DNA of 63,994 nucleotides, counting the filler, from Basidiobolus ranarum (taxonomy: Eukaryota): NCBI GenBank assembly GCA_040143965.1. It is 6 parts of 6 records of this genome, joined end to end, with 100 filler letters (N's around TTAATTAATTAA, not from the genome) between each part and the next. Parts side by side here need not be neighbours in the genome. Positions count along the whole stretch, not along the records: positions 1 to 10,734 come from JASJQH010007546.1; 5 more parts are not named here. One strand, 5' to 3'. Positions 2,424 to 55,114 of this stretch are shown here, piece by piece; the first letter of the stretch is position 1, and the number at the start of each line of letters is the position of its first letter. The notes beneath the pieces were generated by a model. The model worked only from the letters and a program-made list of their open reading frames with translations, was not told the origin of the DNA and did not search any database. The position numbers and the translations under genes are program-made.

Positions 2424-4151
2424 GTCTTCTCATATATACAGAGATTCTCCTCTGCACTAGAGGTCAGGGAAAACAGCAAATAAATGCTTCCATTTAGTTG
2501 ACAGTAAGAAGAAACTTGTGAAATACAGAGAGTTCATGGACCAATAGATCAGTGATATGCTTAAATACATGGTATAAAAGCTATCAGGCATTGATCTATA
2601 CTTACTAAAATATGAAATTTATAAGTCTCTCAGTGTCTTTTCATTTAGCCATGAACAAATTTGAAAATATATCAAAGGATATTCTCAAGTATGTCAATTA
2701 TATAGATACACTCTTTAGCTACATTAGAATTGATAAATGCTTTGCAAAGAAGAACATCAATAGAATCAATTTTCCAAAAAGCCAACTTTCTAAATTAATT
2801 TTGTGGTAAATTTATAATGGTATCAATGGAGTGCAAATAAATATGCTCAATAAGAAAGTCCAAATTGTTTCAGAATACCAACATTACATTCAAAGGTCTT
2901 GTTTATTTTAGAAAAAAAATTGAGTATTTTGAGGAAGTGTTCACTTTGAATGCTAATTTATTTCTTCAAAATGCTGCCAAACTTCCAAACAATTCCATAG
3001 TTTAACACATATAGTAGCTAGCACAACAATGCTTATATTTTATAGCTCAAGAGTGTGACTCTATGCAGCTTTAGAAAAACTACATATTAGCTGTGTAATC
3101 CTATCAAAAAATGACATTTTGAAGATCATGCAATTTTCCTACTATTTCTTAATGGTATTCCAATGGTATTTCACTAATCCCTCTCATGGTAAATCCAAAT
3201 TTTTAAGTTTCCTTTGATTTTCTGCTGGTATTCCAAGGCCTCAGCTTTTACTTCCTCAAGTTTTACTATAGTATTTATCTACATATTTTTTATAGGTCAA
3301 ATGTAGCAAGTAAATTAACCTATTCAGTTATTTTGCAACATTTCAAAATGGATAGATGTTCTATATCAGTACATATGAAAAGAAAGGCTGTATCACTAGA
3401 CTGGTATGTAATTGGTATAGTGTATATATCATTCCACTCTGTGCAGAATCCTGGGCTATATCTTGATATACACTTTGAAAAATTTAGTTATCAAACATTT
3501 CCAAAGCAATTGGGCAACATCTACCAATGGAGTAAATGTGTTTCTGATGTATACAACTTTGAATTTATCTCCTTGGGCATCCCTACATCTAGATATACCA
3601 TTCTATCTCTAAGCCCCTCCTTGGAGTTATAACTCCTTAACAATTAGATATTCTCAGAAACACTCCATAGTTGTGGTATCGGCAGAAAAATCGAGAGTGA
3701 TTGCGATATTACTGTGCTAAACCGAAAACTACAAAATTATGCCTCCACAACTCTAATCTTTAGTGCGACTCCATAGATGTAACCGTAACATAACGCATAA
3801 GGCACAACCCTATATTACCGTATTAGGGTAGGGTCATTATTGAATTTGGACCTCTTTGTTGTATTGGTGTATGCTCTTTGTTATATGTCTCGATGCGAAT
3901 TTAGACACAGCGACCCATGATAAGGAGACGTATAATGAATTGGAGAAAAGGGGGAGATGGGAGCTGAATTGCTACTGGTTAATTAGATGTAATTGGTGAA
4001 AGGGGTACATCGATAGCGTCGTCATTTTGAACGATAAAGTCAAGCGAAAGACTGTAAATTAACCCCTCTATTGATATTCGGTACAAATTCCATCAAGATA
4101 ACTGTTTAGAAGCACTTTGAGAAGAGAAAGAATTTCATTGAGACATTAGTA

Positions 4152-7100
4152 ATGGGCAAGAAGAAATCCCCATCAGCACACGGGAATCCAGCAAAAGGTC
4201 GTAAGAAAAACCGGAGAAAGCAGACAACCTCCAAAACTGTACAGGAGGAACCTCCTTCCGCTGAAATTGAGCAAGTTTTAAATGCTGCTGAAAGCATTCC
4301 AGAGACAAGCACCCATAGTGATATATCTACTCCAGTAAATTCAAGCACTGCGCCGCTAAATACTGGCGATAATACCCCCACTACTGAATTTCTTGAGATA
4401 AGAGAAGTACCAAAGTCGCACGCCGATCTAGAAAATGCAGTGCCTCCTGTGGCAAATAACGATCCTTTACCCTCTACTTCAAGTCTACACCATCATCACT
4501 TGTCCAGCGGAATAGGGCGAAGGTCTGTACTCAAGCCTGTAGTCAGTGAAGAAGAGAATATTGATGATGGAGGTGTTTCTCACATTAAAAAGATGCTTAA
4601 AAGGCCTGTTACTCTCATAGAAACGAGTAGCAAGCCTCGATCTAATATGGCGCGGAAATCCATTACGATAGGAGCCTCACAGGGAAAGACAGGACTATAT
4701 ACTCTAAGTCCAACAATGACAAATTGCGACACGGAAATGGAGTTAGGTAGTGAATTTGAAGTTGTTCTGGAAGATGGGACGCATAAGAAACGGACTGTTT
4801 CTTTAACAACCAATCTTACAAGCCATCGGTAAGACAATTGATATTGGCCTCAAGGGAATTCTAACTAATGACTGCTTTTACCAAATAGTTACTCAACCTC
4901 TCCTTATAAGGTGCCAACAGCCCACCAATCACGTGATAATGATCCGCTATTGTCATATTCTAACATCGGCAGCTCCGATGAAGAGAGCGACCCTTTGAAG
5001 AGAAGAAGCAGAAATTCATGGAATCTGTCAAGACTCAGACTGTCCACTATTCAAAAGAATGTACTTAAGGGAGCATTGGCATATTTCCTAACAGCCATGC
5101 TTACATTTGTCCCGTACATTCGCAACAATCTATTTGACGAGCAAAGTACACATGTAGCGGCCATTTCGGTGTTGTTTTTCAATCCTGCTCGCCCTCTGGG
5201 AGCATTGCTTGAGGAAGCAAAATATGGCATATGTGGGATTATTTTTGGAACTTTAGTGGGAATATCAAGTCTTCTTACAACAATTGGCTGGAACATGTAT
5301 TTTCCGTTGGAATTGCAATGGTGGACCAAAGTAATAAATTTGGTTTTTTGGTGCGGCGGAACTGCCTTCATAATGGCATATTATAAGGCCAGGATTGGGA
5401 AACCTACAATTTACACTGGTAGAGTCATTCAGTCCCTCATCTACTAATTTCTCAGTCCCTCATCTACTAATTTAATACTAATTGTGGGCTTCTATTACAG
5501 GAGTAGCGTGTGCCAACATTTTGATTTTCATCTTACTTGTGAGGTGCACGAGCAAGCCTGAGCCTTTCCTCGATACTAACACCATCATAGCTACGGTTAA
5601 AGGAATGGTATCAGGTGTCCTCATTGCTCTCTTTGTTTCATTCAACATTTTTCCTGAAAATGCCAGTGACAACCTACGGTATGGAATTTACTAGCTCATC
5701 CCTCTCACCAGCCGCTTCCTTTTTATTAACAAATTCCTTTCCTAATTAGCACCGATATTTCAAAAACACTACAGTCATTTCGCACACTCTTGAAATTGCT
5801 GACAAAGACTTTTTTGATGGATCCAGGGCTGGATCATGCAGCCATCCAGAAGCTATTGGATGAGCATCGGAACTCCATCACATCTCTGAAGAAGTCCCTT
5901 GGAGAGGCTAGCAACGAGTTTCATAAGCCTCAAGTATCATCGCGCATCAATATCTACAGTCAAATTGTGGCCTCCTTAAATCAATTGACTCAACACTTAG
6001 GTGGGCTATCTAGTAGTGTAAGTCATCAAATGGAGGTGCTAGGAAAGCAGGATTCTGAGTACGGTTCCACTTCTCAAAAGCGAGCTGAAGCTGAAATGCT
6101 ACAAGAATTTATTTATTATGTGGGCCCACCAATGCGTTCACTTGCATTCACCTGTAAACAGACTATTATGAAGTTGGAGGACTGCTTTCAACAGAGTAAA
6201 CATATCCCCGATGTATCTCCCTTCCATCAGCTAAGTGTCAATCTGAGTGAGGCCTTGGCTGTTTTTGAACGATCACAGTCGCTAGCTGTAACTGGATTAT
6301 ATAAGAGGGCCAAGTTTGATGGAAGACCCAATGAAGAAGTATTTCTCGTGTATTTTTTCGTCTTCTCTTTACAAGAGTTTACGCGAGAATTAGGCTCCGT
6401 AGTCAAGTCGGTAGAGTCGCTTTGGAAATCTCACCGTATGCCCGAAGCGTATCATCGCGATCAAGAATATTACAACTATATTACAGGTATGATATTTTAA
6501 TATCGATCGTTTGACCAGCCACTAACATCTACATAGATGAAAAATACCCCGCGTTAGACCTCGGAACTACTCATGGTTTACACACTCCGGAACCGCATTC
6601 CGGTGCTCTAAAGCTATCCCACTTTGCTTGGAAATTCTTCAGTTGGTTCCGAACTTTCGAAGCCAAATTCGCCTTAAAAACTGCAATTGCCACGACACTC
6701 TTGATGTTACCTGCCTTTCACGATGAATGGCGAAGTACTTACTATGGGTATCGGGGTGAATGGGCACTTATTTCGGTATTTTGTCATGAATTAGATCTTG
6801 TTTGTTCTCATCTTCTAAATAATCTTCAAAAATAGTTAGGAGTGGCAATGGTACCATCGGTTGGCGGAAGTAACATGATCGGCATGTACCGTTTGTTAGG
6901 AACATTTTTTGGTGGAATCTTTTCGTATGGCGTTTATGCACTATTTCCAGCTTACGGACCTGTTATGGCTGCTATAGTTTTCTTATTTGCAATTCCCTGC
7001 TATTATATTATATTATATACAAAGCATCCATTGGGTGCCCAATTTTCCCTTTTGACTTTGGCTAACATTTTGCTAAATGGCTATGCCCCGGCCAAAGGAG

Positions 7101-8050
7101 AACCTCCACATGATATTGGCACGCTTGCCTTTAAGCGTGTGTTAGCTGTGAGTACTGGAGTTATCTTCGGGCTTATATTTACAAAGTAAGTGAAAGAATC
7201 TCTATTTTTAAGGATCTTATTAATTCATGAAAATAGCTATGTTTGGCCGTATGAAGCACGAGTTGAACTTCGGAAGGAGCTTAGCCAGTTTTTCTTGAGA
7301 ATAAGTGAATTATATCACAAATTAGTGGCCATGTACAGCTCTGAAGATAATGAATCGAATGGAGATACTCTCGAAGGATCAAGTAATGTTCCTATCAACA
7401 TTGATAAGAACCGTGAAATTAAAGAATTCCTTGATTTGGAATTACAATTACAATTGGCATTATTGAATTTACATGTACTGTTATCTCAAACCAGTCATGA
7501 ACCGCGACTCAAAGGACCATATCCACAATCAACATACAAATTGATCCTAGTCTCTTGTCAAAATTTACTAGATAAGCTACTTGCGATGAGAATTGCCGTT
7601 ACTAAAGAGGTGTGGTTCCAGTCGGTCCGCGAAGATTTTGTTATGCCGGTTAATGATGAACGAAAGCAAATGGTTGGATGTATTTTACTTTCATTTTACA
7701 TATTTGCTTCTGCTCTTCGAATCAAAACTCCATTACCGCCCTATCTACCTCCAGCTAATGAAGCCCGACAGAGACTAGTAGCCCGAATTCGAGAACTTCC
7801 AGTGGTAAAAATGCGACATGTGTACGGTAATGATGCACATTATATTTTCTACTACGCCTATGTGTTGGTACTAGAAGATGTCATTCGAGAGATTGATAAA
7901 ATCGGTACCTATATGAAGTTACTTTTTGGCTGCGTCGGAGGGGCTCAGTTCGAAGGTTACTTCCGAACACCAACATTTAGTGATGATTTTAGTCGTAAGC
8001 ACTCAGTTGCCAGTATCAACTCTCAAGATATTCAGAGTTATAGGTATTAG
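4152..8050 (+). CDS. Multi-exon membrane protein of the FUSC/aromatic acid exporter (ArAE_2, Bre4/YGL140C-like) family
   Basis: About 7 exons joined by GT-AG introns (first intron 4829-4888). Disordered N-terminus and two TM clusters. Motifs KFALKTAIA, YRGEWALIS, PSVGGS...RLLGT, YVWPYEARVELR, EPRLKGPYP, ALRIKTPLPPYLP. Confidence 0.8.
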
Positions 8051-8597: not shown

Positions 8598-8877
8598 CAT
8601 CAGTTCAAATAGAGTCGGGCCAAATGGTAGAAGTGGAATGATGTGAGTGTAATTTAGTGGTTTGAAGAGAAAAAGATACGACTTGTGTTCAGAATGAAAT
8701 TGGCTACTCCAAGATTATGTCATTCAATTTATGCGGGCTACTCTTTTCCTTTTGTGAGAAGTTGCAAACACTTGAAAAAAAATGCATCGGTGGGTCGAAT
8801 GTATATAAGAACTATGAATGCAGTCTACTTTTACCATATTGTAGAGATACAATTGAGCAGGAAACCCAAGTTAGAGA

Positions 8878-10719
8878 ATGGCAACCAAACTAGTGAAAAA
8901 GATATTCCAAACGAATCTAACCAATTCGATACCCGTGGATGAATTTGTTAGAGAAATGCGAACTGCTAGAATCTTAGAAAGATTCGGGACTTTTATCCAG
9001 GATTGTGACTTAGTAGAGGTGCCGAACAATGTTCTTCTGGTAAAACCGCTTCTTGATAGCTTGAAAAGTTGCTTTAGTGCCGTACAACTTCAGAAGGAAA
9101 TGACTTGGATTTTACAACCCCAGGCAATGTTTGTATCCTATATTACGGACGAGACCAACGGCATGCAGAGTACCATTAACGGCGAAACCAATGGCATACT
9201 AAGTACTATTACTGAGCGAGAAAGCTATGCAATTAGTATGGAAAGTGATAGCCTTATTCAAATATATACATGGCCTAACAATCACGTATATATCTTGGAT
9301 TTACTCAGCCTTACGAAATATCGCAATGAAATTTTATCAATGCTTGGTCAATTGCTAAAGAACGAGTCTCCCAAATACTTCTATGATTGTGGACCAGTAT
9401 TTTCGTTGCTTGAAGAACTCCTCGAAATATCTTACCAAGAGTTCAACGGTTGCATTGATGTTCAAGTAGAGAACAATACAATGTCAGTGTTAATAAGGAA
9501 GTTGGGCATTAAGCACTACCTGAAGGAAACTGTAATGTCGATTACTGCTCAAAGTAGTCAGGTGTGGTCTCATAGGCCTATGCACAGAGATTTGGTCATC
9601 TATGCTGCATTGGATGCATATTGCATTCATCAGATCTCCGATGCTATCAAGTCACACAACGCGTTGATGAGTGCAGCAGATACCATCAAAAAATACGAAA
9701 TTTACAAGCTTGGAGTTTTCGTAGCACCAATTAACCTTGAGATTGAGTGTGATACCGACGTTATTGGTCGAGCGATAGGCTATGACTTGATAAAGGAGAT
9801 TGAGCTGTCGGATACAGACGTGTTTCTCGACATAGGAAGAAAGACAAGACTAAACAGGCATTCTTCTAGTAGAATAGTCTCCGGTTATGATATCAGTGCA
9901 GAGATGCTGCATTCCATTCTTGAAAACTATCCAAATACAGTAGGGAACAGAGTAATTTTGGGACCAACACTTCACAGATTATCTCGAGTAATGTACGAGG
10001 ATAAGCCCGTTGGGTTGACATGGAGACTGGGCAGAAAAATCAAGGGACTTGCTCCGATATTTCTAGAGAAAGTTGATGCATCCATGAATATCCTTATCTG
10101 TGGTCCTCCCAACGTAGGAAAAACTTCTTTCCTAAGAGCTCTGTGTGAAGACATTTCGATGAACAAGTCCCTGTGCCTAATTGACACTTCAGGAGAAGTA
10201 TGTGGTAGCAGCGGTATACTTGGAGATTCCAGAATTTTTAAGCCAAGTTCGCCAGAGAAGCAGTATGATCTGATGATGGATATCGTTAAAAACCACTCCC
10301 CTAGTCACATCGTAATTGATGAAATACACACCAAAGAAGAAATGAAATTATGTTCGACCATCTCGAAGAGAGGCGTCAAAGTTATTGCGTCGGTCCATGG
10401 TTTGTTTCATGACTTGATTTACAATCAGGAACTCAATGCCAGTATTGGGGGAATCCATAAAACAATTTTATCTGACGCTAGAGCTGATTTGATAGCCACA
10501 GGGCGAAAAACCAGGATAGAACGTCAAGAGAGGTCCCTTTTCGATGTTGCTATTCAATTGACCCATTCGTCAGGACGCTTTGAGTACTGCTTCATCACCG
10601 ATATAAGTAATGCGGTTGATAGAATACTCAACGACCAAACAGTTAAGACCGTATATAGATATCTTACTGAAGACGGAGTATATGAAAAACAGTCATCTAT
10701 AGATCCTAGCACTCCATAG
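8878..10719 (+). CDS. Intronless 613-aa fusion: DEDDy 3'-5' exonuclease-like domain + Ycf45/SpoIIIAA-type P-loop ATPase
   Basis: Exonuclease-like motifs AISME, LIQI...VYILDL, KYFYDC, WSHRPM, YAALDA. ATPase motifs LHRLS, GLTWRLGR, Walker A GPPNVGKTS (nt ~10102), IDTSGEVCG, HSPSHIVIDEI (Walker B), RGVKVIASVHG, ER...FD. Confidence 0.85.
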   Translation: MATKLVKKIFQTNLTNSIPVDEFVREMRTARILERFGTFIQDCDLVEVPNNVLLVKPLLDSLKSCFSAVQLQKEMTWILQPQAMFVSYITDETNGMQSTINGETNGILSTITERESYAISMESDSLIQIYTWPNNHVYILDLLSLTKYRNEILSMLGQLLKNESPKYFYDCGPVFSLLEELLEISYQEFNGCIDVQVENNTMSVLIRKLGIKHYLKETVMSITAQSSQVWSHRPMHRDLVIYAALDAYCIHQISDAIKSHNALMSAADTIKKYEIYKLGVFVAPINLEIECDTDVIGRAIGYDLIKEIELSDTDVFLDIGRKTRLNRHSSSRIVSGYDISAEMLHSILENYPNTVGNRVILGPTLHRLSRVMYEDKPVGLTWRLGRKIKGLAPIFLEKVDASMNILICGPPNVGKTSFLRALCEDISMNKSLCLIDTSGEVCGSSGILGDSRIFKPSSPEKQYDLMMDIVKNHSPSHIVIDEIHTKEEMKLCSTISKRGVKVIASVHGLFHDLIYNQELNASIGGIHKTILSDARADLIATGRKTRIERQERSLFDVAIQLTHSSGRFEYCFITDISNAVDRILNDQTVKTVYRYLTEDGVYEKQSSIDPSTP

Positions 10720-27590: not shown

Positions 27591-28147
27591 CGTTGATAGG
27601 CTCCTACATGAATTGATCAAGACACGTTAATTTAATGTTTAAACAGTAGCTTGTGGTTGATCCTCATCCTCCTTATGCTGGTGGATTTTGCAACATTATC
27701 GTCACACATCCCATCAACATCTCACCCAAGCACTCGAAATCTGGTTGGATCTCATCTCTCTTTCTGGGACAACCTCAGCCAATCCTGAATATCTATGTCT
27801 ACGTAAATCCATTACTTCCTCATACACTACTTGTATTACTATTCGATTTTGCAAATCTAGCTAATTGGTTCACTGAGAAAGGTTTCCTGGATGCACAATT
27901 GTGATTGATAATGGTAAATACTGGTCATATCGAAACGAGTCCTGCCTTGATGTAATACAATTTTAACTAGAAAAATGTCCCCGAATTCACTTGACGGCAT
28001 ATGCCATATGGTACATGGTATCACTCATTATTTACTTTTACATATCATTATTACCTAGTTGCGATTCACCAATATAAATAGTATCTATTGCCACTCTTTC
28101 CCTCACTTTTGGCCTTATATAATCTAAACCACCTGAAACTAGTAGTA

Positions 28148-29341
28148 ATGCAGCTAAAAATCTTCATCACTGCTCTCCTGCCAATTCTTGTCCTTGGCCA
28201 AAAGGAGAGCCAACTCGCTTCTTCAATTAATGCTAACTCTGAGGCACCCCTGAATACAACCGCTACTTCAGTGCAAGCCTCGTTGCCATCTGGTGATCTA
28301 GGTCGCGGAGGCTTTCGTGGTTACCCCTTGAGGAAATTCTATAAGCAGTTTCCCGTAGGCGTAGCAGTTTCCAAAGGAGGTAGAACATTTGTGAGTTTCC
28401 CTCGTTGGGAGCAGAACAAAGGCAATCATATCGTGGAACTAGTCAACAATCGTGAGGTTGCTTATCCCAATAAGGATATGAACGACCTCACTAACCCGGA
28501 TGCCTTTAATCAGATCCACACTATTGTCATTGATGGTTATGACAGGCTGTGGTGCCTGGACACCCGTAAACCCACTAATGGTGCCCGTCCTCAGTCTCAG
28601 CACCGCTTCTATGTAATTGATATTAAGACTAACAAGATTGTTCGTACTTACACCTTCCCTCCTGGAGTGGAACTTCCCAATTCAGTAATGCAAGATATCC
28701 GCTTTGATGCCAAAATGAAATACGGCTTTATCACTGACACTAACGAAGCTGGTATCGTGGTACTCGACCTTGAGACTGGCCAAAGCTGGAGACGCCTAGC
28801 TAACCACTACTCCACTCTCCCCATGAAGAGTTTCGTACTTACCATAGAAGGAGTTCCTCTTTACCCTGGTGGAAAACACTTCGCAGCTGCCTCCAATGGT
28901 ATTGCCATCTCTGCTGATTTTGAAACGGTTTACTATGCCCCTCTCTCCTCCCGCTCTCTCTATTCTGTTCCTGTTAAATCTCTTATTGATACCAACATGA
29001 CTGATGCCCAAGTGGGAGCTCTAGTCCAGACACCTCTTCCCGATAAGGGAAGCGCTACTTCCGGTCTCGCTACTGATTCCAAAGGTTGCATATATCTGGC
29101 CAACTTGGAGAGAAACTCCATTACTCGCTACGACCCAAAAACAAACAAACTAGAACTAGTTGCTCGTGACCCTAACTTGTTATGGCCCGATACTCTTGCT
29201 ATCAGCAATGGCTATCTCTATGCTACCGCAAATCAGTTGCATCGCCGTGCAAGTTTCCAGAATGGCCCTGATGCGCGAAAAGCACCTTATTATCTATTCC
29301 AGTACGCTATTAATGAAGATGCTCCTAAATACTTACTTTAA
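28148..29341 (+). CDS. Secreted major royal jelly protein (MRJP/Yellow) family beta-propeller, intronless
   Basis: Signal peptide MQLKIFITALLPILVLG. Motifs PVGVAVS..GRTFVSFPRW, AYPN, DRLWCLDT, GIVVLDL.TG.SWRRL, NGIAISAD, DPNLLWPDTL, NQLHR. TATA-like tataaata at ~28073. Confidence 0.88.
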   Translation: MQLKIFITALLPILVLGQKESQLASSINANSEAPLNTTATSVQASLPSGDLGRGGFRGYPLRKFYKQFPVGVAVSKGGRTFVSFPRWEQNKGNHIVELVNNREVAYPNKDMNDLTNPDAFNQIHTIVIDGYDRLWCLDTRKPTNGARPQSQHRFYVIDIKTNKIVRTYTFPPGVELPNSVMQDIRFDAKMKYGFITDTNEAGIVVLDLETGQSWRRLANHYSTLPMKSFVLTIEGVPLYPGGKHFAAASNGIAISADFETVYYAPLSSRSLYSVPVKSLIDTNMTDAQVGALVQTPLPDKGSATSGLATDSKGCIYLANLERNSITRYDPKTNKLELVARDPNLLWPDTLAISNGYLYATANQLHRRASFQNGPDARKAPYYLFQYAINEDAPKYLL

Positions 29342-38141: not shown

Positions 38142-41100
38142 ATGAGTACTGTTGGGAAGGAACCTACAGTAGTGCCAACTTCGTCTTGGCATAGTAAACC
38201 CGACTACAATCAGTTATTACCATACTCGATTTCCGATCGGGAGGATCCAACATCTGAGCCATCAGCATTATTAGCAGAAATTGAGACTGGACTCGCTTCT
38301 TGCGTTCTTTCAGGTGATATCACCCTTGGTGCTAATTCTTGGACCAAACGTCTACATGCGTATGTATAGTTTCTACTTTACCATTTGAACAGTCTAGTGA
38401 TGATCTTGGCTCTATCTTGACTAGTTAAAATAGATTTACAATAATTCTCTAAATTTTCTTTTAATACTAAACCAGATACTTAAATTTGAAATACCCTCTT
38501 CCTCTCGAGTCTCGTCTAAAGCTAGCAGACTTGTACTTTCAGCTTCTGGTTGCCCCCAGAGTGTATGATTCTTCTATGACTCAGTATTGGGCAGTCTATC
38601 TATTGAAGTTGGTCAAGTATGTAGATTTTTGATAATGGTTTATTAGCTAGCACAATCTAATTTTTTTTCGTTAATAGAAAACAACACCCAGATTTGCCCG
38701 ATAATGCGTGGTCCATCCCTTGGAGGCCACTTCATAGTACGATCGAGAGTATTATCCAGCAAAAACAGCGCGAGAAAGCACATGAAAATGATCGGTATGT
38801 TGATGTAATAAGCAGATACACGAGAGATAGCACCATTTCTAACACTTTGATATTAATGTGTAGACGAAATGTCACTACTGTGATGCGTACAGTTGAGTTC
38901 ACTAAGCGCTTTTTTCAACCTGGCTCCACTCAGGAGATTCTTGAAGAATTTTTACCATCACTTTACCCCTTCTCTCATAAAGTAATACCTGGAGCTTTAC
39001 CTAGCATACTCTCTTCACCAAGTGCTACTTTGTCAATACTCTCAGAGACTCTCTCTACATTCACACCCACTATGTTGCTTAGAGCTCAGGCTTACTTAGT
39101 ACTATTTTTGCCTACAAATGTCTCCGATGTTTCCTTATGGTTTGATACCTTTTTATCTGTCTGGGGATGGCAACGAAACTCTTCACTTTGGGACACGCTG
39201 TGGTTAGACCTATACTCTAGAGTAGCCAGAGATCGTATAGGGCACATAACATGGGAACCGCGAGTAGTACGACACATGTTCACTGTAACTTTAAAAACCC
39301 TCGAGGTGCCAGTTGGACGCGGAACTGGCATAGCCGGAAGGTTAAAGATTGGCTCCAAAGATAAGCTGCTATCTTTCATGAAAGATAAGGTAGGTCCTAT
39401 TGATGAGTTTGTTTCACTTTGGATTGATTTGACTTACGATGATATACTCTATTGTAGGATGTAAGAGCCTCCTGTGCCCGATTAATTGTTTACATGATGT
39501 CTCCACATGAAGATAATCATGTTCTCTTTGAGCTCAAGAAGCTGATACAAGCGGTGGAAACATTCTTCCATCCATCTAATCACACTCACAGACTCTCATC
39601 GGTTTTAGCAGGATTCTTGAGAAACTTGACTACATATTTCTTGAAAAGACTTTCTGAAGGTAAATCATCCACAATCTAGTCAAGCGACTCGGCTAACGCT
39701 AGAATTTGCATTATGAAACCTAGAATCTGAACCTGATTGCAAAACTCCTGAAGAATTCAGAATTACTGAAGAAATGAAGAACGAGTTTGTAACTACTCTT
39801 AAGCATGTTGCATTCTTGTCGATGTTCGGAAAAGACGACATGGTTGTTAACAATTCCATTACCGCTTTAAGATGTTTGGGATGTAATATATCGCAGTTTA
39901 TACCCTTTTTTCTACCGTCGATATGATACTGACATTTGGATTTTTTAAGACGTGAAACCCGAGCTTATTGTGCCACCGTTGATGGAAAAAGTTTCATATT
40001 CATTGGAATCATTAACTGAAGTAAACTCTATGTTACTCCGAGAACTAGCCTCATTCTATATTGTACTAACTTCTCTACCTCACATTACAGACTCATCGAA
40101 CGAATTCGTCCATTATCGCACTTTCTTCGTTGGCACGGATCATCCTGACTCGGAAGATGTACCCAATGGGAGCCACACATATTCTGGACCTCTTCAATAT
40201 GGTACTTCCAGGGATTGATGCGAATGACAGTATCAAAACAATCACGACATTCAAATTCATCAGCAGTTGTTTGTTCTGCCTTCCACTAATGGAGGCTGAC
40301 AACCCTAACTCCACTCTCACCGTCCCCTCGTGGTCTGATGAGCTGATAGAGGAGACAGTGTTCTCAGTGACTAAAGGATTTGAGGAATTCGCCATCAACT
40401 TCATTGAGAGAATCTTCGCATTGGTATGTCTGTTTGTATACAATTCAGCAGTGTTGTAACTTGAAACTTATCCCACTATAAATTAGCTCGAGAACATGCC
40501 GGAACGAGAGGCTGGGATGACACATATGATGCTCTATTGTGCGGATCTATTTTTCCAATCACTCTCACCCGAGATATTCGAGCTCGTCCTTGCAAAAACC
40601 ATCGCATTCATCTCGAACAATGTCATTGCCAGTGCCATCAAAACCATTGGTAGGTTGGCCATTAGATTTTGTTTATTAAGTCACACTCTCAAATACATTC
40701 CATTTTTTAGGAATTTTTTGTTGCACTCTGACTACAAGCAATCGTAAGTCGGCTTTGGCAAAGTTCATTCCTCTTTGTTGCTCGTCGATCTTGGAAGAGA
40801 TTGAGAATGGCGCTGGCTCCGATGTAAATGCCACATCTCAATCGGATTTGAAGCTCACGTGGTTCCAATCGATATTCGCAGGGGTTTTGAGATACTCTGG
40901 ATCGGAAGTAATGAAATATCAAAAGCAAGTACTAGAAACCATCGCCACCATGACCCAACTTAAATCCAAGCGTGGTTACAAGTATGCTGGAAAAGCATTA
41001 AGAAACCTGATAAGAAGTCTCACTTGGACCTACACTCTTGACGAAAGAAATTTCTCAGTTAGTACTATGAACGATCCTAACTTTAGGAAAACCCATTTTC

Positions 41101-43190
41101 AGCAGTGGGGTACGATCGAGGATTCTCATGGACTCTCTTTGGAATGGCATGTGCCAAGTGATGAGGAGATCAACTTTGCCCTTCACATGGTTGAAATCTT
41201 TTTGAAGCCGATGATGCTGGATCTTACGCAAATCGCCGATGGAAGCAATGCCTCGGCTGTTGATAAGAACGACTTTATTCGCAAACTTACACTATGTCGC
41301 TATGTTGTCAAAGGAATATCTACCTTGACCATAGATGTTCCATCGAACACTTGTGAGGCTGATCAGGAGATTCATGAGGACGACAATTGTACAAAGGGAG
41401 CCCATCCTAAACGTAGATTCATTAACGCTGGATATTGTCTTACGGATAGCAACGACGCCAGGTGCCAAGATATTCGTAAAACTAGACTAGAACTTGGGGT
41501 TCTACTTCATAAACTCGTCCACTACCTCAAAAATGAAAGAGAAGACGACACAAAATCCATCAAGATTGTTCTCAAGATCATCAATGTGTTCTTGACCAAC
41601 AGAGGCGAAACGAAAGAAAAATACGAGTCTCGCCGAGCTGTTGTAAAACTTCTCAAAATGGCCTCTCAAGATTACTCCACTCATACTAAACGCAGTCAAA
41701 GATATCCTAGATATGTGCTGGCTCGTAGATTGCATATGCTTCATACGGAGCGGTTATTTTTGAATGCTACCATTGCTCCAAAACTGGGTATTCATCAAGA
41801 ATTAATGGAAGATCTCTTGGACATGTCAATGAGCCATTACACAGCCATTCGAAAATTGGCTCAATCGATTTTAGATACGGCCATCTCTTGCTTCCAGTCA
41901 TCCAAGTATAGTTTATTGGAGAGGATTTTCAAACAGATAGAATCAAATAAGCTTAGCCCTGATGGACTTAAAGGGGCGCTATATCTTTTACGCATGCGTC
42001 CGTTCCAAAGCGCATACCTTCGTGATTGGAACACCATGGCCAGCTTTATGAAAGTTATATTTAATGGTCGTCATGAAAATAAGGAATCAATTCAGAAGTT
42101 GATTGAAGTCGTTTATTTGGAGTTTACCTATCGCTATGTGTCGCCTACATTAACCTTCAACATCACGGAAGAGATCGTCGAAGCTGCTGGAAAAATACTA
42201 AATCGTCAAGATCTAGAAATCCTTTCAAAGAACGCCTCCGAACAGATCAGTGAACGAAATTCTACAAATGTTCAAATCTATAAAGATTTGATCAATGATC
42301 TTCTGGCTATTGTTCATGCAAACAATCTCCATTGGAGATTTGCAAGAATGGCCATTTTGTTTCTTGGTTTGCTTCTAACTAGGAAAGATCAACCTGTAAA
42401 TTGGGAGGTGGTACAGTATCTGGCCAAGACAGCGGTCTCTGAGCTGATTGTTCTCCGATCTGTAGCGCTCAAGGCCTTGAATAACAATATTTACGTGCAC
42501 AAACAGCAAGCTCTGAGTGCACAAACGCTAGCATATAAAACTCAGATCAGCCCTTCACTCACTCTTGAAGATTACTTGCGACAATTGAACACCCCTATCC
42601 AATCGGAAGAGGAATATACCAGTGCCCACTTTCAGGATCAAGAGTATCTGGGTTGGTATCAGTTCACCAAACAATATAAAGTCTACACTCCGAACAACGG
42701 ACAGATAGCAGCTATTTTACGTGAACCTTTAGAGAGTCACGCCCCTCTATTTCTGTCAGAAGAATTCTGGGATAAATGTATGGTCTACATGTCCCAGGAA
42801 CAAGGGGATAGCGATATTACTGTCTCAGTACATAATCTGTTGTTCTTTAAAGGACTTTTTGAGATTTATGATACTCAATTGTTGTCGATCTTGAAGAATT
42901 TCATCGAATCAAATGTCAACAATTACACGTACAAGAATGTTCAAAAGACGGTAGCGGAAATCATTGCTGGTATGCTCCGTGGAAGCAAGCATTGGGAATA
43001 TACCAAATGGAAATCTATGCTTGACTTTATTGCTCCGTTATTGACCGAAAAAATCTTTCCCAATTTAACTCTTGAAGTCATTCCATTGTGGACTGCTGCT
43101 TTACAGTGGGCCATGACAAACAGAGACCCACGTCGCTTCTCTACTATTATTGAGCGTCTGATGGAATATCCATTGAATTTGGAAACATCG
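38142..43190 (+). CDS. BLM10: Proteasome activator Blm10/PA200 (PSME4), 3'-truncated
   Basis: Multi-exon helical-repeat protein. YNQLLPY, YLNLKY, IPWRPL, ETFFHPSN, SLESLTETHRT, LPGIDANDSIKT, LEWHVPSDEEI, AEIIAGMLRGSKHW, RDPRR. Confidence 0.92.
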
Positions 43191-43290
43191 NNNNNNNNNN
43201 NNNNNNNNNNNNNNNNNNNNNNNNNNNNNNNNNNTTAATTAATTAANNNNNNNNNNNNNNNNNNNNNNNNNNNNNNNNNNNNNNNNNNNN
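43191..43290. other. Artificial contig spacer
   Basis: N44-TTAATTAATTAA-N44. Confidence 0.98.
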
Positions 43291-52204: not shown

Positions 52205-53994
52205 TTACATCGTTCTCCCCGTTCCATTCGACCTTAGATTAGGCCCCGGTCGAAACCTTGGATTGCCTGGCTCCATCTGTTCTCTAAACTCCATGTGTGA
52301 GGGATTGATGGGATATCTCGGTCTAGGTTGATGATTTGGATCGAAGAATTGGTTAGGTGCCGCCCCTGGAAAGAACGGTCTTTCATATGCATATCCTTGG
52401 TTTGGCGGCACCCCTTGGTAGAAGTGAGGATTGTAGTAGGGAGAAGGGACTCCTGGCCCGGGTGGGATTCCATTTGGAAATCTTTGGAAAGCTCCGCGAC
52501 GATTCATTTCGAATTCATTCAAAGGTGGTCCCCTCATCGGATTTGCCAACAATGGATCAGGATAGCCCGGACCTGGACCTGGACGATATTGGCGCCCTTC
52601 AGGAGGCCAGTTATTCATACCAACAGAACTAGGCCGCGGGTTGGCTGGGTTCATTCGTCCTCTCGGGTTAGATTGTGGCGAAGTATCTAATGGTCTGAAG
52701 TTTGGATGTTCGTACGAGTGTGCTAATGGGTTGAAATTATCTGGCGGTTGATTTGACATGGGAAGTGATACTGGTGCATGGAACGGCTCATGATGAGGCT
52801 TTTTCAAGAAATCGTCAACGTGAACCGATGGTAGACGAGCAGCATTGGCTTTCCGTACCCCATACGGATTCCGAAATTCATTATTCTGGTACGCTTTCCC
52901 TCCACCCAAGTTCTTCCGGTGTGGCTCCTCACGAGCTAGCGTACTAACATGGTGTGGTTCGAATGGAATGATGACCGGAGCTCCCTCCTCATCGCTCTCC
53001 TCCTCATAAACCTTCACTCGCTTTCGGGAAGAAAACCCGGGGAACATTCTGTGCGCATACACTTTGAAGTCCTGCACCTCTTTCGAGAAGTAGAACATTT
53101 CTTCGTAATCATCATGATATACAAAATCTTCCCATACTAAATAAAGTGGTGGTTTAATCAGCAATTCATTCAAGTTATTCTAAATGGAAATTACAACTTA
53201 CTTGGCGAACTGGTCCAATCGCGAGATTTCAAAAAATCGGCTAGACTACGTTTGCGTGTTTGAAAGATTCCTTCTAAACCAACAAAGCAAGCTTCAATTC
53301 CATCGAATCGCTCATCAAATCTATACGAACCTGAATTACTCTCCAAATGCAACGATTGTGTCACTTCTAGAAGCCAATGGAGTAATTCACATAACGGCTT
53401 CAACAGTTCAGTTGCTTCATCCATGCTATTCTCGCTGGACTTCAAAACTTCTTGACAGGCCTGTCCCAACTCAATGCAAGTCTTAAACGGACCCAGTAAA
53501 TTTGCAAAAAGGGTGATTTTAATGTCTTCGTTGGTTTGGTTAGCGGTAGCATGACTTCTCCATTGATCGTAGAGTTGTTTAGTCAGGCCAAGTGTCTGCT
53601 TCAACTTCTCCAAGACGAAAGGTTGCTGGCTACCAAGAGACAATTCCTTCATCGTGTCGTTCATGATAGCATTGATTGCGTAACAGAAGTCAGGATTGCT
53701 CAGAATTGTCAGTGTGCCAATGACCGAATGGGATATGTCTGTCAACATGTCGAGCGCTCTGGTTCGTAAGCGTGCATGCTTCTCGCTCTGAATCCATCCC
53801 AGAAGATTGGAGATCAGTTCGGAAAGTTGTGTAGATTGGATGTCGAATTCAACTTTGCTATGTAACAAATCCGCGCTAGGATCATTTAAGTAAACACGTC
53901 GATCGAATTGATCCCAATGACTCGAAAGTAAATGAATGACTTCCATCGCTAGATCACTAACGAAATGGCTGGTACCGAATAGCTCTGCAATATC
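52205..53994 (-). CDS. 3' part of a Virilizer/VIRMA-like protein (m6A writer-complex scaffold)
   Basis: Helical-repeat exon, intron 53137-53201, then FRNPYGVRKANAARLPSVHVDDF (cf. VIRMA FRQRKQNTSRPPSMHVDDF) and a Pro/Gly/Arg-rich tail. Confidence 0.7.
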
Positions 53995-54094
53995 NNNNNN
54001 NNNNNNNNNNNNNNNNNNNNNNNNNNNNNNNNNNNNNNTTAATTAATTAANNNNNNNNNNNNNNNNNNNNNNNNNNNNNNNNNNNNNNNNNNNN
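53995..54094. other. Artificial contig spacer
   Basis: N44-TTAATTAATTAA-N44. Confidence 0.98.
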
Positions 54095-55114
54095 TTTAAA
54101 TTAGGCGGAGAGCAAGATGGGGCTAACAAAATTAAAGGTGGCATTAAGATGGGGGTTGTTAAATTCATCTTGCGTGCTTTAACCTCTATGGGTTATCAAA
54201 CCAGATTTAGTGTACAGCAAGCTGGACATCATGGCCTTCCGCAAAGTCGTCGTCGCCTATTCTTTTGGGGAGCCAAACGTGGATCCAATCTACCGATGTT
54301 CCCGCAGCCTTCGAATTGCTTCCCCAAACGAGGTACTCTTAATGTTAACCTACCTAACGGAGGACATTCCATCGCCATTAAACGTACGATAGGACATGCA
54401 CCACATCCACCTGTTACTGTGGCCGATGCTATATGTGATTTACCAGGATTTGAATATCGTAATCCAGCAACCATTTACAAAGTTAAGAATGAACGAAAAA
54501 GCATATTCAAAAAACTTTCAGTGAAAAGTGGTGGATACATAGGTGACATGGAAACCGAATACAGTCATCCGCCACTCACCGAATATCAGCGCCAACTTCG
54601 TAAACACGCAACGAAGTTATACAATCATATTACTAGAGGTTTTAACGAACTCACAACAGAAAGAATATGCGGGGTTCCTATGTGGGCGGGAGCGGATCAT
54701 TCTAATTTACCAGAGAAATTAAAGCCATGGTGTTTAAGTAGCCCAGACTCTGCAGCGAGTAGACATAACGGCTGGAAAGGGCTATTTGGTCGGTTAGACT
54801 TTGATGGGCATTTTCAAACTGCTTTGACGGATATTCAGCCAATGGGTAAACAAGGCACTGTGATTCATCCCAATCAAGAGCGAGTACTTTCAGTACGAGA
54901 ATGCGCTAGAGCCCAAGGATTCCCAGATGATTTTATATTTTATAATTTCAACAAGCAAGATGTCAAAGATTTACATCGACAAGTTGGCAATGCGGTTCCT
55001 CCACCACTTGCTGCCGCCCTTGGTGAACAATTAAAGTTAGCATTACTAGAAACCATTTCTGACGAAGCAGACAATGAAGCTAATAGTGCCGAGCAGAACT
55101 ACCGGTGTACATAA
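54095..55114 (+). CDS. DNMT1: C-terminal part of a DNMT1-type cytosine-5 DNA methyltransferase
   Basis: Frame open from the contig edge. MGYQ, motif VIII GLPQSRRR, TVADAICDLP, LKPWCL, WKGLFGRL, PMGKQG.VIHP.Q.RVLSVRECARAQGFPD, RQVGNAVPPPLA. Confidence 0.92.
   Translation, partial: FKLGGEQDGANKIKGGIKMGVVKFILRALTSMGYQTRFSVQQAGHHGLPQSRRRLFFWGAKRGSNLPMFPQPSNCFPKRGTLNVNLPNGGHSIAIKRTIGHAPHPPVTVADAICDLPGFEYRNPATIYKVKNERKSIFKKLSVKSGGYIGDMETEYSHPPLTEYQRQLRKHATKLYNHITRGFNELTTERICGVPMWAGADHSNLPEKLKPWCLSSPDSAASRHNGWKGLFGRLDFDGHFQTALTDIQPMGKQGTVIHPNQERVLSVRECARAQGFPDDFIFYNFNKQDVKDLHRQVGNAVPPPLAAALGEQLKLALLETISDEADNEANSAEQNYRCT

Follow-up and report, generated by a model that had tools for sequence, protein, structure and literature searches.

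A degenerate DEDDy exonuclease fold joined to a Ycf45/SpoIIIAA-type ATPase in Basidiobolus ranarum: a probable divergent fungal branch of an apparently widespread eukaryotic fusion family

What might a fungal protein do that carries, on a single chain, a 3'-5' exonuclease fold lacking part of its catalytic site and an ATPase of the Ycf45/SpoIIIAA type with all its motifs in place? The question is raised by a gene at positions 8878..10719 of a 63,994-nucleotide stretch of Basidiobolus ranarum DNA (GenBank assembly GCA_040143965.1; 6 parts of 6 records joined end to end), which we refer to as the window. Its product, P0001, is a member of a very divergent fungal branch, probably of a protein family in which an RNase D-like exonuclease domain (PF01612) is fused to a Ycf45-like ATPase (PF19568). 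We propose, with somewhat more confidence than doubt, that P0001 is a divergent member of this family acting as a nucleic-acid (probably RNA) remodelling ATPase, in which the nuclease has turned into a binding module.

The gene is one uninterrupted open reading frame (ORF) of 613 codons plus stop on the plus strand, and the single 1.8-kb ORF described in the initial annotation is therefore intact. An in-frame TAG (8872-8874) lies one codon 5' of the ATG, and the start codon is backed by the B. meristosporus paralogue P0004, which has the same conserved 26 residues at its N-terminus. P0001 is 52-55% identical to two B. meristosporus paralogues by BLASTP and 53-57% in a MAFFT alignment; no second copy of the gene was found in the window with tblastn.

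To place the domains, an AlphaFold2 (AF2) model of P0001 was built from a 150-homologue alignment (predicted local distance difference test (pLDDT) 83.4, predicted template modelling score (pTM) 0.67) and compared exhaustively with solved structures by VIA-align, with Foldseek in addition. In Pfam, DNA_pol_A_exo1 (PF01612) matches aa 112-258 with 26.3 bits (cut-off 23.6) and Spore_III_AA (PF19568) aa 383-517 with 30.8 bits (cut-off 27). Pfam and the model comparison thus agree on both folds that had been read from the DNA, a DEDDy exonuclease and a Ycf45/SpoIIIAA ATPase, and every motif quoted for them, from AISME to ASVHG, is present (Table 1). The AAA profile (PF00004) also scores above its cut-off (27.8 bits), covering only profile positions 1-68 of 131, the P-loop half; the structure of the ATPase matches the RecA/PilT class and not classical AAA+.

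For the exonuclease domain (aa 62-266), the top structural match is apPol (9qsc, Z 12.7). Nibbler comes second and is the closest exoribonuclease, with Z 12.3 for the Aedes protein (7jw2_B, 24% identity over 166 residues) and 12.1 for that of Drosophila (7jw6), followed by E. coli RNase D (1yt3) and Exd1 (5fiq; both 11.9), Egalitarian (9rvy, 11.8), T. brucei RNase D (11.7) and WRN (2e6l, 11.6). With PF01612 above its cut-off and fold matches at Z 11.6-12.3, absence of a DEDDy fold can be set aside. A Basidiobolus profile run against PDB sequences gave Nibbler as its sole match (E 0.0037), in the ExoIII region only.

We then turn to the catalytic residues, for which P0001 was aligned with 17 non-fungal relatives. 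The column of the ExoI Asp holds S120 and that of the ExoII Asp V174, with E122, Y242 and D246 unchanged. Of the four DEDD carboxylates two are accordingly missing, and ExoIII is retained (Tyr242/Asp246), just as the initial annotation had suspected. Both Asp residues are replaced in all three proteins of the Basidiobolus branch (P0001 and the two B. meristosporus paralogues): the ExoII position is Val in P0001, Phe in P0003 and Leu in P0004, and P0003 has lost the ExoI Glu as well, with Lys in its place. By its residues, P0001 does not qualify as a catalytic DEDDy nuclease. The exonuclease is also the least conserved folded part of the protein, with 43-47% identity to the B. meristosporus paralogues, as compared to 65-69% for the ATPase core. 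This difference and the intactness of the ORF over 1.8 kb speak for selection on the gene. DEDD plus Tyr is complete in 23 of 35 other exonuclease domains that were aligned, and the remaining 12 carry at least one substitution, indicating that catalytic residues have been lost more than once in the exonuclease-Ycf45 family.

The ATPase module (aa 296-613) gives the strongest fold matches, with DotB at Z 17.1 (276 residues, root-mean-square deviation 4.4), PilT at 16.6, CpaF and GspE at 16.1, FlaI at 15.8, the archaeal Holliday-junction ATPase PINA (5f4h) at 15.5 and VirB11 at 15.4. The match takes in both the N-domain and the RecA-like core, starting at model residues 294-313 (297 for PINA), and the top Foldseek matches of the P0001 model are 5f4h (PINA, first), 8rkd and 4ii7. 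The ATPase motif set is complete, as first reported: Walker A, Asp box, Walker B and His box are all intact. Since the residues conserved among 137 non-fungal relatives (K415, T416, D436, E440, R452, H473, D481, E482 and H507 among them) are all kept, the ATPase is probably active; K415, E440 and H473 are invariant in 150 sequences. P0001 scores far below the equivalog cut-off of the stage III sporulation protein AA model in NCBIfam (TIGR02858; 45.8 versus 281.3 bits) and the cut-off of the PINA model (NF053733; 16 versus 800). Pfam detects neither a PTPase-like (PF25516) nor an R3H (PF01424) domain in P0001 at E <= 1. One or both of these domains occur in 25 of 98 relatives that have no exonuclease, which bears out the proposed tie to the bacterial and plastid Ycf45 proteins with R3H. 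A homo-oligomer prediction with three copies of aa 296-613 scored 0.26 against a mark of 0.32, was run without controls and has no bearing on rings.

N-terminal to the exonuclease, residues 1-55 are predicted by AF2, with modest confidence, to form a helix-strand-helix-helix-strand-strand order that resembles a winged helix. This domain can be aligned with the N-termini of the Mortierellomycotina relatives described below, and has no detectable similarity to those of the non-fungal fusion proteins; the linker between exonuclease and ATPase is approximately 80 aa shorter in P0001 than in non-fungal relatives. Identity with LOTUS/OST-HTH (PF12872) was considered and rejected: aa 1-75 have no Pfam match at E <= 1, and hhalign against the LOTUS domains of relatives gave a probability of 0.1%. 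Among family members, OST-HTH matches are confined to P0052 (E 3.6e-13), which carries the LOTUS domain besides exonuclease and ATPase, and, weakly, P0067 (E 0.025). Four other relatives (P0034, P0040, P0077 and P0102) apparently have in common, upstream of the exonuclease, a beta-rich segment with PxNPNP at its end. Three of the four were scanned and gave no Pfam match there; the segment may be a further nucleic-acid-binding domain.

How unusual is the combination? A word-indexed search returned 11 proteins: the gene's own product, two full-length B. meristosporus proteins (55% and 52%), seven proteins of Mortierellomycotina that match the ATPase half only, and one protein with R3H from JGI data. 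The picture widened considerably when 1.84 billion representative proteins were searched exhaustively by HMMER with a Basidiobolus profile, which gave 2402 proteins at E <= 0.001. P0001 was at the top, followed by two ATPase-only proteins of the Mortierellomycotina clade, after which scores drop from 274-289 bits to approximately 180 bits. Of the 149 best representatives, 45 carry the exonuclease according to a hidden Markov model (HMM) of our own for this domain, nearly always fused to the ATPase, and Pfam finds PF01612 and PF19568 together in 21 of the 31 top matches scanned. Short assembled contigs are the main source of the exonuclease-bearing representatives, which have lengths of 500-1150 aa. 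One of the relatives, P0018 (1753 aa), has two tandem Spore_III_AA ATPase modules at approximately aa 587-709 and 1461-1547.

The ESM Atlas likewise holds one large cluster with the fusion architecture (n = 60; PF19568 in 97%, PF01612 in 70%), which is 100% eukaryotic and has Oomycota as its commonest phylum (phylum known for 19 members). In line with this, YCF45 appears among the genes with cyanobacterial ancestry that Maruyama et al. (2009) tabulate for Phytophthora ramorum and Naegleria gruberi (PMC3087521). When a profile of the non-fungal fusion proteins was compared with the PDB, Egalitarian was the best match (E 6.4e-44), followed by T. brucei RNase D, Rrp6 and EXD1. The fusion is therefore not exceptional, given its presence in 45 of the 149 best representatives and in an all-eukaryotic cluster of 60, and it appears to be a widespread eukaryotic protein family that is apparently unstudied. 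One finding that the initial annotation had named as refuting it was a fungal family that is widespread, passed on vertically and already characterised; the family we found is widespread, patchy in fungi and not characterised. As far as our literature searches reach, no protein with this architecture has been characterised, and they returned no paper on the exonuclease-Ycf45 fusion family, which survey supplements may mention. In a survey of horizontal gene transfer in early-diverging fungi, the gene's domain terms are absent from the main text, and the supplements may list the gene (PMC11291939). The Ycf45 literature we retrieved consists mostly of plastid-genome reports, with no paper on Ycf45 function among them.

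Within the fungal branch, the state of the exonuclease varies. Basidiobolus and Mortierellomycotina share the derived ATPase substitutions G412N, R453V/I, V456P, E468D and E560Q/N, and where Basidiobolus has the exonuclease fold the Mortierellomycotina proteins have a low-complexity linker. A third state is provided by P0041 (398 aa), which has a fungal-type N-terminus, shares 30% identity with P0001 across aa 10-361 and retains intact exonuclease motifs (DIE, YDCRND and YSMLD). Its composition is apparently AT-rich and its sequence stops within the ATPase N-domain; a fragment and a truncated paralogue are both conceivable. With P0041 intact, Basidiobolus degenerate and Mortierellomycotina deleted, the branch displays three nuclease states in a trend from intact through degenerate to lost, and the ATPase is conserved throughout.

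The phylogeny of the ATPase bears on where this branch came from. In a FastTree analysis of 149 ATPase modules, a long stem carries Basidiobolus and Mortierellomycotina as a single clade (support 100), which lies outside the clade that contains all R3H/PTPase proteins (support 92). We also ran IQ-TREE (LG+C20, quick search) on 69 of the 149 rows (32 exonuclease-bearing, 17 R3H, 8 fungal and 12 ATPase-only). Here the R3H rows fall on one side of a branch with support 86, and all 32 exonuclease-bearing rows lie in one 37-row clade (support 80).

Relatives in viruses and prokaryotes were collected separately. A scan of IMG/VR gave 13 loci, all with the ATPase only, at 27-37% identity over long matches and with one 25-residue match at 64%. 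One of these loci, L007, is on a contig labelled as a giant-virus metagenome-assembled genome (MAG) and encodes at 5001-5738 a Ycf45-like ATPase that is 32% identical to aa 357-599 of P0001; no exonuclease lies within its flanks. Among 185,579 prokaryotic species genomes scanned, 576 relatives were found. The best 80 of these 576 loci belong mostly to Cyanobacteria and Chloroflexota, are 41-51% identical to a non-fungal fusion protein, and match it only from residue 312 onward, i.e., the ATPase. No DEDDy exonuclease ORF is present in the flanks of any of the 93 loci (13 viral and best 80 prokaryotic). Because no viral or prokaryotic locus examined holds the fusion, the suggestion that the gene was acquired via a virus or directly from bacteria finds no support. 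Vertical descent with many losses is not distinguishable from eukaryote-to-fungus transfer.

The genes around 8878..10719 are ordinary eukaryotic genes, and the GC content of the gene region (0.376-0.393) is that of the window. The upstream neighbour consists of several ORF pieces and an intron of approximately 60 nucleotides (GTAAGA...TAG), i.e., it is a gene with introns. In the 4.6 kb downstream all ORFs are below 110 aa; the neighbours on the downstream side are mitochondrial carrier and CorA genes, with PSME4-like, aminotransferase, DNA methylase and URO-D genes at a greater distance. The description of the gene as intronless in an intron-rich genome holds in that a single exon stands next to an intron-bearing upstream gene. 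It does not hold as a mark of exception, since 13 stop-to-stop ORFs of at least 250 aa occur in the window, among them an 852-aa exon of the PSME4-like gene. Elsewhere in the window, a 355-aa ORF at 54047-55114 (plus strand) encodes a C-5 cytosine DNA methylase domain (PF00145, E 1.7e-25), adjoined by two minus-strand ORFs (52205-53179 and 53191-54042) without a Pfam match, and a 419-aa ORF at 28082-29341 (plus strand) belongs to the major royal jelly protein/yellow family (PF03022, E 3e-34). That family is known mainly from insects and bacteria, and its presence in a fungal genome may be notable.

Table 1. Features of the P0001 gene and of its surroundings, in window coordinates
Feature	Position	Strand	Basis or remark
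Complete single-exon coding sequence, P0001	8878..10719	+	613 codons + stop
N-terminal small alpha/beta domain, aa 1-60	8878..9057	+	AF2 secondary structure, pLDDT 55-80
Degenerate DEDDy 3'-5' exonuclease fold, aa 62-266	9061..9675	+	PF01612, VIA-align
ExoI remnant AISME, aa 118-122	9229..9243	+	Ser120 for metal-binding Asp, Glu122 kept
ExoII remnant YDCGPV, aa 169-174	9382..9399	+	Val174 for catalytic Asp of HDCRxD
ExoIII motif YAALD, aa 242-246	9601..9615	+	Tyr and Asp retained
Linker with one helix, aa 267-295	9676..9762	+	AF2 model
ATPase N-domain (Ycf45/PilT class), aa 296-390	9763..10047	+	Conserved NR...LHR.S...G.T.R.GR motifs retained
RecA-like ATPase core and C-terminal beta-rich subdomain, aa 391-613	10048..10716	+	PF19568, fold matches
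Walker A GPPNVGKTS, aa 409-417	10102..10128	+	K415 invariant in 150 sequences
Asp box IDTSGE, aa 435-440	10180..10197	+	D436, E440 100% in 137 non-fungal relatives
Walker B VIDEI, aa 479-483	10312..10326	+	D481, E482
His box ASVHG, aa 504-508	10387..10401	+	H507 conserved at 100%
Upstream neighbour, BRE4-like multi-exon gene	4110-8050	+	At least 4 ORF pieces; last matches BRE4-like domain PF10334
Short canonical GTAAGA...TAG intron of upstream BRE4-like gene	~4829-4888		
852-codon uninterrupted ORF	40680-43238	+	Middle and HEAT regions of PSME4/Blm10-like proteasome activator

How, then, might P0001 work? We picture a three-part protein, in which a winged-helix-like domain and a DEDDy exonuclease fold would be coupled to a Ycf45/SpoIIIAA-type ATPase of the PilT/VirB11/PINA class. 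By analogy with its structural relatives PilT, VirB11 and PINA, the ATPase may assemble into a ring, and its ATP hydrolysis would drive the translocation or remodelling of a single-stranded nucleic acid, which is probably RNA. A ring ATPase of this class has been described in PINA, which is hexameric, acts as a DNA helicase and has a KH domain (PMC6061704). In the ancestral form, the exonuclease would trim a 3' end delivered by the motor; in Basidiobolus the fold would serve only as a module that holds the substrate (3' ends or structured nucleic acid), and in Mortierellomycotina it would have been dropped altogether. Since the exonuclease is degenerate in the former and dropped in the latter, the conserved core activity in fungi would be that of the ATPase together with the N-terminal domain. 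The loss of two of the four metal-binding carboxylates (Ser120 and Val174) suggests that the fold most likely binds without cutting. A nucleic-acid substrate is favoured because the partner domains in the family are R3H, DEDDy exonuclease and LOTUS, and RNA is favoured over DNA because the nearest sequence relatives of the family exonuclease act on RNA.

More speculatively, exonuclease-Ycf45 proteins may form a class of eukaryotic ATP-driven RNA 3'-end machines that has gone unrecognised, in which a PilT/PINA-class ring translocase with cyanobacterial-type ancestry feeds RNA to an Egalitarian-type exonuclease. In zygomycete fungi the machine would then have become an ATPase that holds RNA with a dead nuclease (Basidiobolus) or a motor left with only a winged-helix adaptor (Mortierellomycotina), put to use in RNA surveillance or silencing. 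We put this broader scheme forward as tentative, and the role in silencing or surveillance, already raised in the initial annotation, is a guess. If the scheme is true, these proteins would be the first eukaryotic ones in the secretion-ATPase superfamily to be directed at RNA.

Several observations pull against our proposal of a remodelling ATPase with a binding-only nuclease fold. That fold is probably inactive as a nuclease, as judged from the residues, and Glu122, Asp170, Asp194 and Asp246 remain in P0001. With an exonuclease HMM built from the family without its fungal sequences, an ordinary RNase D scores 90.7 bits and P0001 45.1 bits. Plain RNase D scoring higher, the HMM was discarded as a discriminating measure of specific kinship, and sequence alone does not tie the P0001 exonuclease specifically to the fusion family. 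In the free IQ-TREE search, the fungal stem is 1.5 substitutions per site long and sits beside another long branch, outside the exonuclease clade. As the ATPase tree places the fungi so loosely, the case for a common origin of the fusion is made by the architecture and by an approximately unbiased (AU) test that does not reject it: when the fungi were forced together with the exonuclease clade, a group named post hoc, the log-likelihood of the tree exceeded that of the free search by 14.39 units (p-AU 0.773). A single origin of the exonuclease-ATPase fusion is thus allowed, even favoured. The evidence also does not distinguish RNA from DNA as the substrate, and PINA and WRN act on DNA.

The last point brings up the alternative that P0001 acts on DNA, as a PINA-like branch-migration ATPase with a WRN-like domain for binding DNA ends. 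PINA, itself a DNA helicase (PMC6061704), is the top Foldseek match (5f4h, Z 15.5), and WRN couples the same exonuclease fold to a DNA motor (2e6l, Z 11.6). The sequences closest to the family exonuclease are those of Egalitarian, T. brucei RNase D, Rrp6 and EXD1, all RNA-acting, and one family member has a LOTUS domain with its association to RNA pathways; neither point is decisive, and we consider a DNA-directed protein unlikely while taking the idea seriously. It is a good deal less probable that the exonuclease is still catalytic, as an ATP-coupled nuclease in the manner of its intact relatives, with a reduced or one-metal site made of Glu122, Asp246, Tyr242, Asp170 and Asp194. E122, Y242 and D246 are indeed kept, the family-conserved D170 and D194 are present, and the fold is modelled with pLDDT 85-91 over aa 110-190. 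However, the ExoI Glu is Lys in P0003, no other folded part is less conserved (43-47% identity), the sister lineage Mortierellomycotina has deleted the domain, and both replaced positions (Ser120 and Val174) are metal ligands of the DEDD site.

Might the ATPase not be directed at nucleic acid at all? It could be part of a protein or membrane machine like SpoIIIAA or PilT, or have an organelle-type Ycf45 role, with the exonuclease as a scaffold for protein interactions. Structurally the ATPase comes closest to secretion and pilus ATPases (DotB 17.1, PilT 16.6, GspE 16.1), the Pfam family is named after SpoIIIAA, and among the papers retrieved none deals with Ycf45 function. We nevertheless regard such a role as distinctly improbable: P0001 is not a SpoIIIAA equivalog (45.8 versus 281.3 bits), the partner domains in the family are the nucleic-acid modules R3H, DEDDy exonuclease and LOTUS, and no transmembrane or secretion partner genes lie nearby. 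Most improbable of all is that the gene lacks introns as the result of recent acquisition from a bacterium or a (giant) virus. Such a transfer would fit a single exon beside intron-bearing neighbours, an ATPase class that is mainly bacterial, and the Ycf45-like ATPase on the giant-virus MAG contig L007. It is contradicted by a GC content equal to that of the surroundings and by ordinary eukaryotic neighbours, by viral and prokaryotic loci (13 and the best 80) with the ATPase only and no exonuclease in the flanks, by a position of the fungal branch outside the R3H/PTPase clade (support for that clade 92 in FastTree, 86 in IQ-TREE), and by the same derived form being common to two fungal phyla.

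Ycf45 is a long-conserved plastid and cyanobacterial gene of unknown function, and its fusion to a domain suggestive of nucleic-acid 3' ends provides a testable clue to its activity. The wide occurrence of the architecture lessens the surprise, yet the family gives a handle on Ycf45 function, and the fungal series with the nuclease intact, probably dead and deleted separates the role of the motor from that of the nuclease. If P0001 merely adds another weakly conserved paralogue to an uncharacterised family, the result is a useful annotation only.

Both domains are well known, and we found no paper on their combination, which is common in eukaryotic sequence data; comparison with known systems shows how much of P0001 is familiar. 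It is most like the eukaryotic PF01612 + PF19568 fusion family, with which it shares the order of N-terminal region, exonuclease, linker, ATPase N-domain and core, as well as ATPase motifs that are identical in kind; a tree constrained to join the two is not rejected by the AU test (p-AU 0.773). It differs from that family in being only 22-27% identical, in its approximately 80 aa shorter linker, in the absence of the ExoI and ExoII Asp, in fungal-specific ATPase substitutions and in a dissimilar N-terminal domain. Egalitarian and EXD1 share the exonuclease fold (9rvy, Z 11.8; 5fiq, Z 11.9), and since they have exonuclease-like domains that work without catalysis, they provide a model for the Basidiobolus domain. 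Unlike P0001, they have no ATPase and work with BicD/dynein and TDRD12 as partners, and in the family-profile alignment Egalitarian keeps DCEG, HDCRND and YAAGD, whereas P0001 is without two of the acidic residues. Nibbler and Mut-7, which are active small-RNA trimmers, resemble P0001 in fold (Z 12.3 and 12.1 for the two Nibbler proteins) but have no fused motor.

On the ATPase side, the Ycf45/R3H ATPases of cyanobacteria, Chloroflexota and plastids, together with SpoIIIAA, belong to the same Pfam family and have the same motif set, and the Atlas structural model of P0001 matches Ycf45-type clusters with a template modelling (TM) score of 0.75-0.81 normalised by target. P0001 departs from the Ycf45/R3H proteins in having no PTPase-like or R3H C-terminus and in being nuclear-encoded among eukaryotic neighbours. 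With PINA, PilT, VirB11 and DotB it shares a two-domain ATPase with four boxes (Z 15.4-17.1), and PINA, as described, shows that the class can act on nucleic acid (PMC6061704). Identity to these proteins is 10-15%, their accessory domains are different, and the likeness to PINA is one of fold only. The closest parallel to the whole arrangement is perhaps WRN, which also has a PF01612-type exonuclease and an ATP-driven nucleic-acid motor on one chain. The WRN nuclease is active and its motor is of an unrelated class (RecQ of helicase superfamily 2 (SF2) versus PilT/RecA-like), so that the parallel is an analogy and not whole-protein homology.

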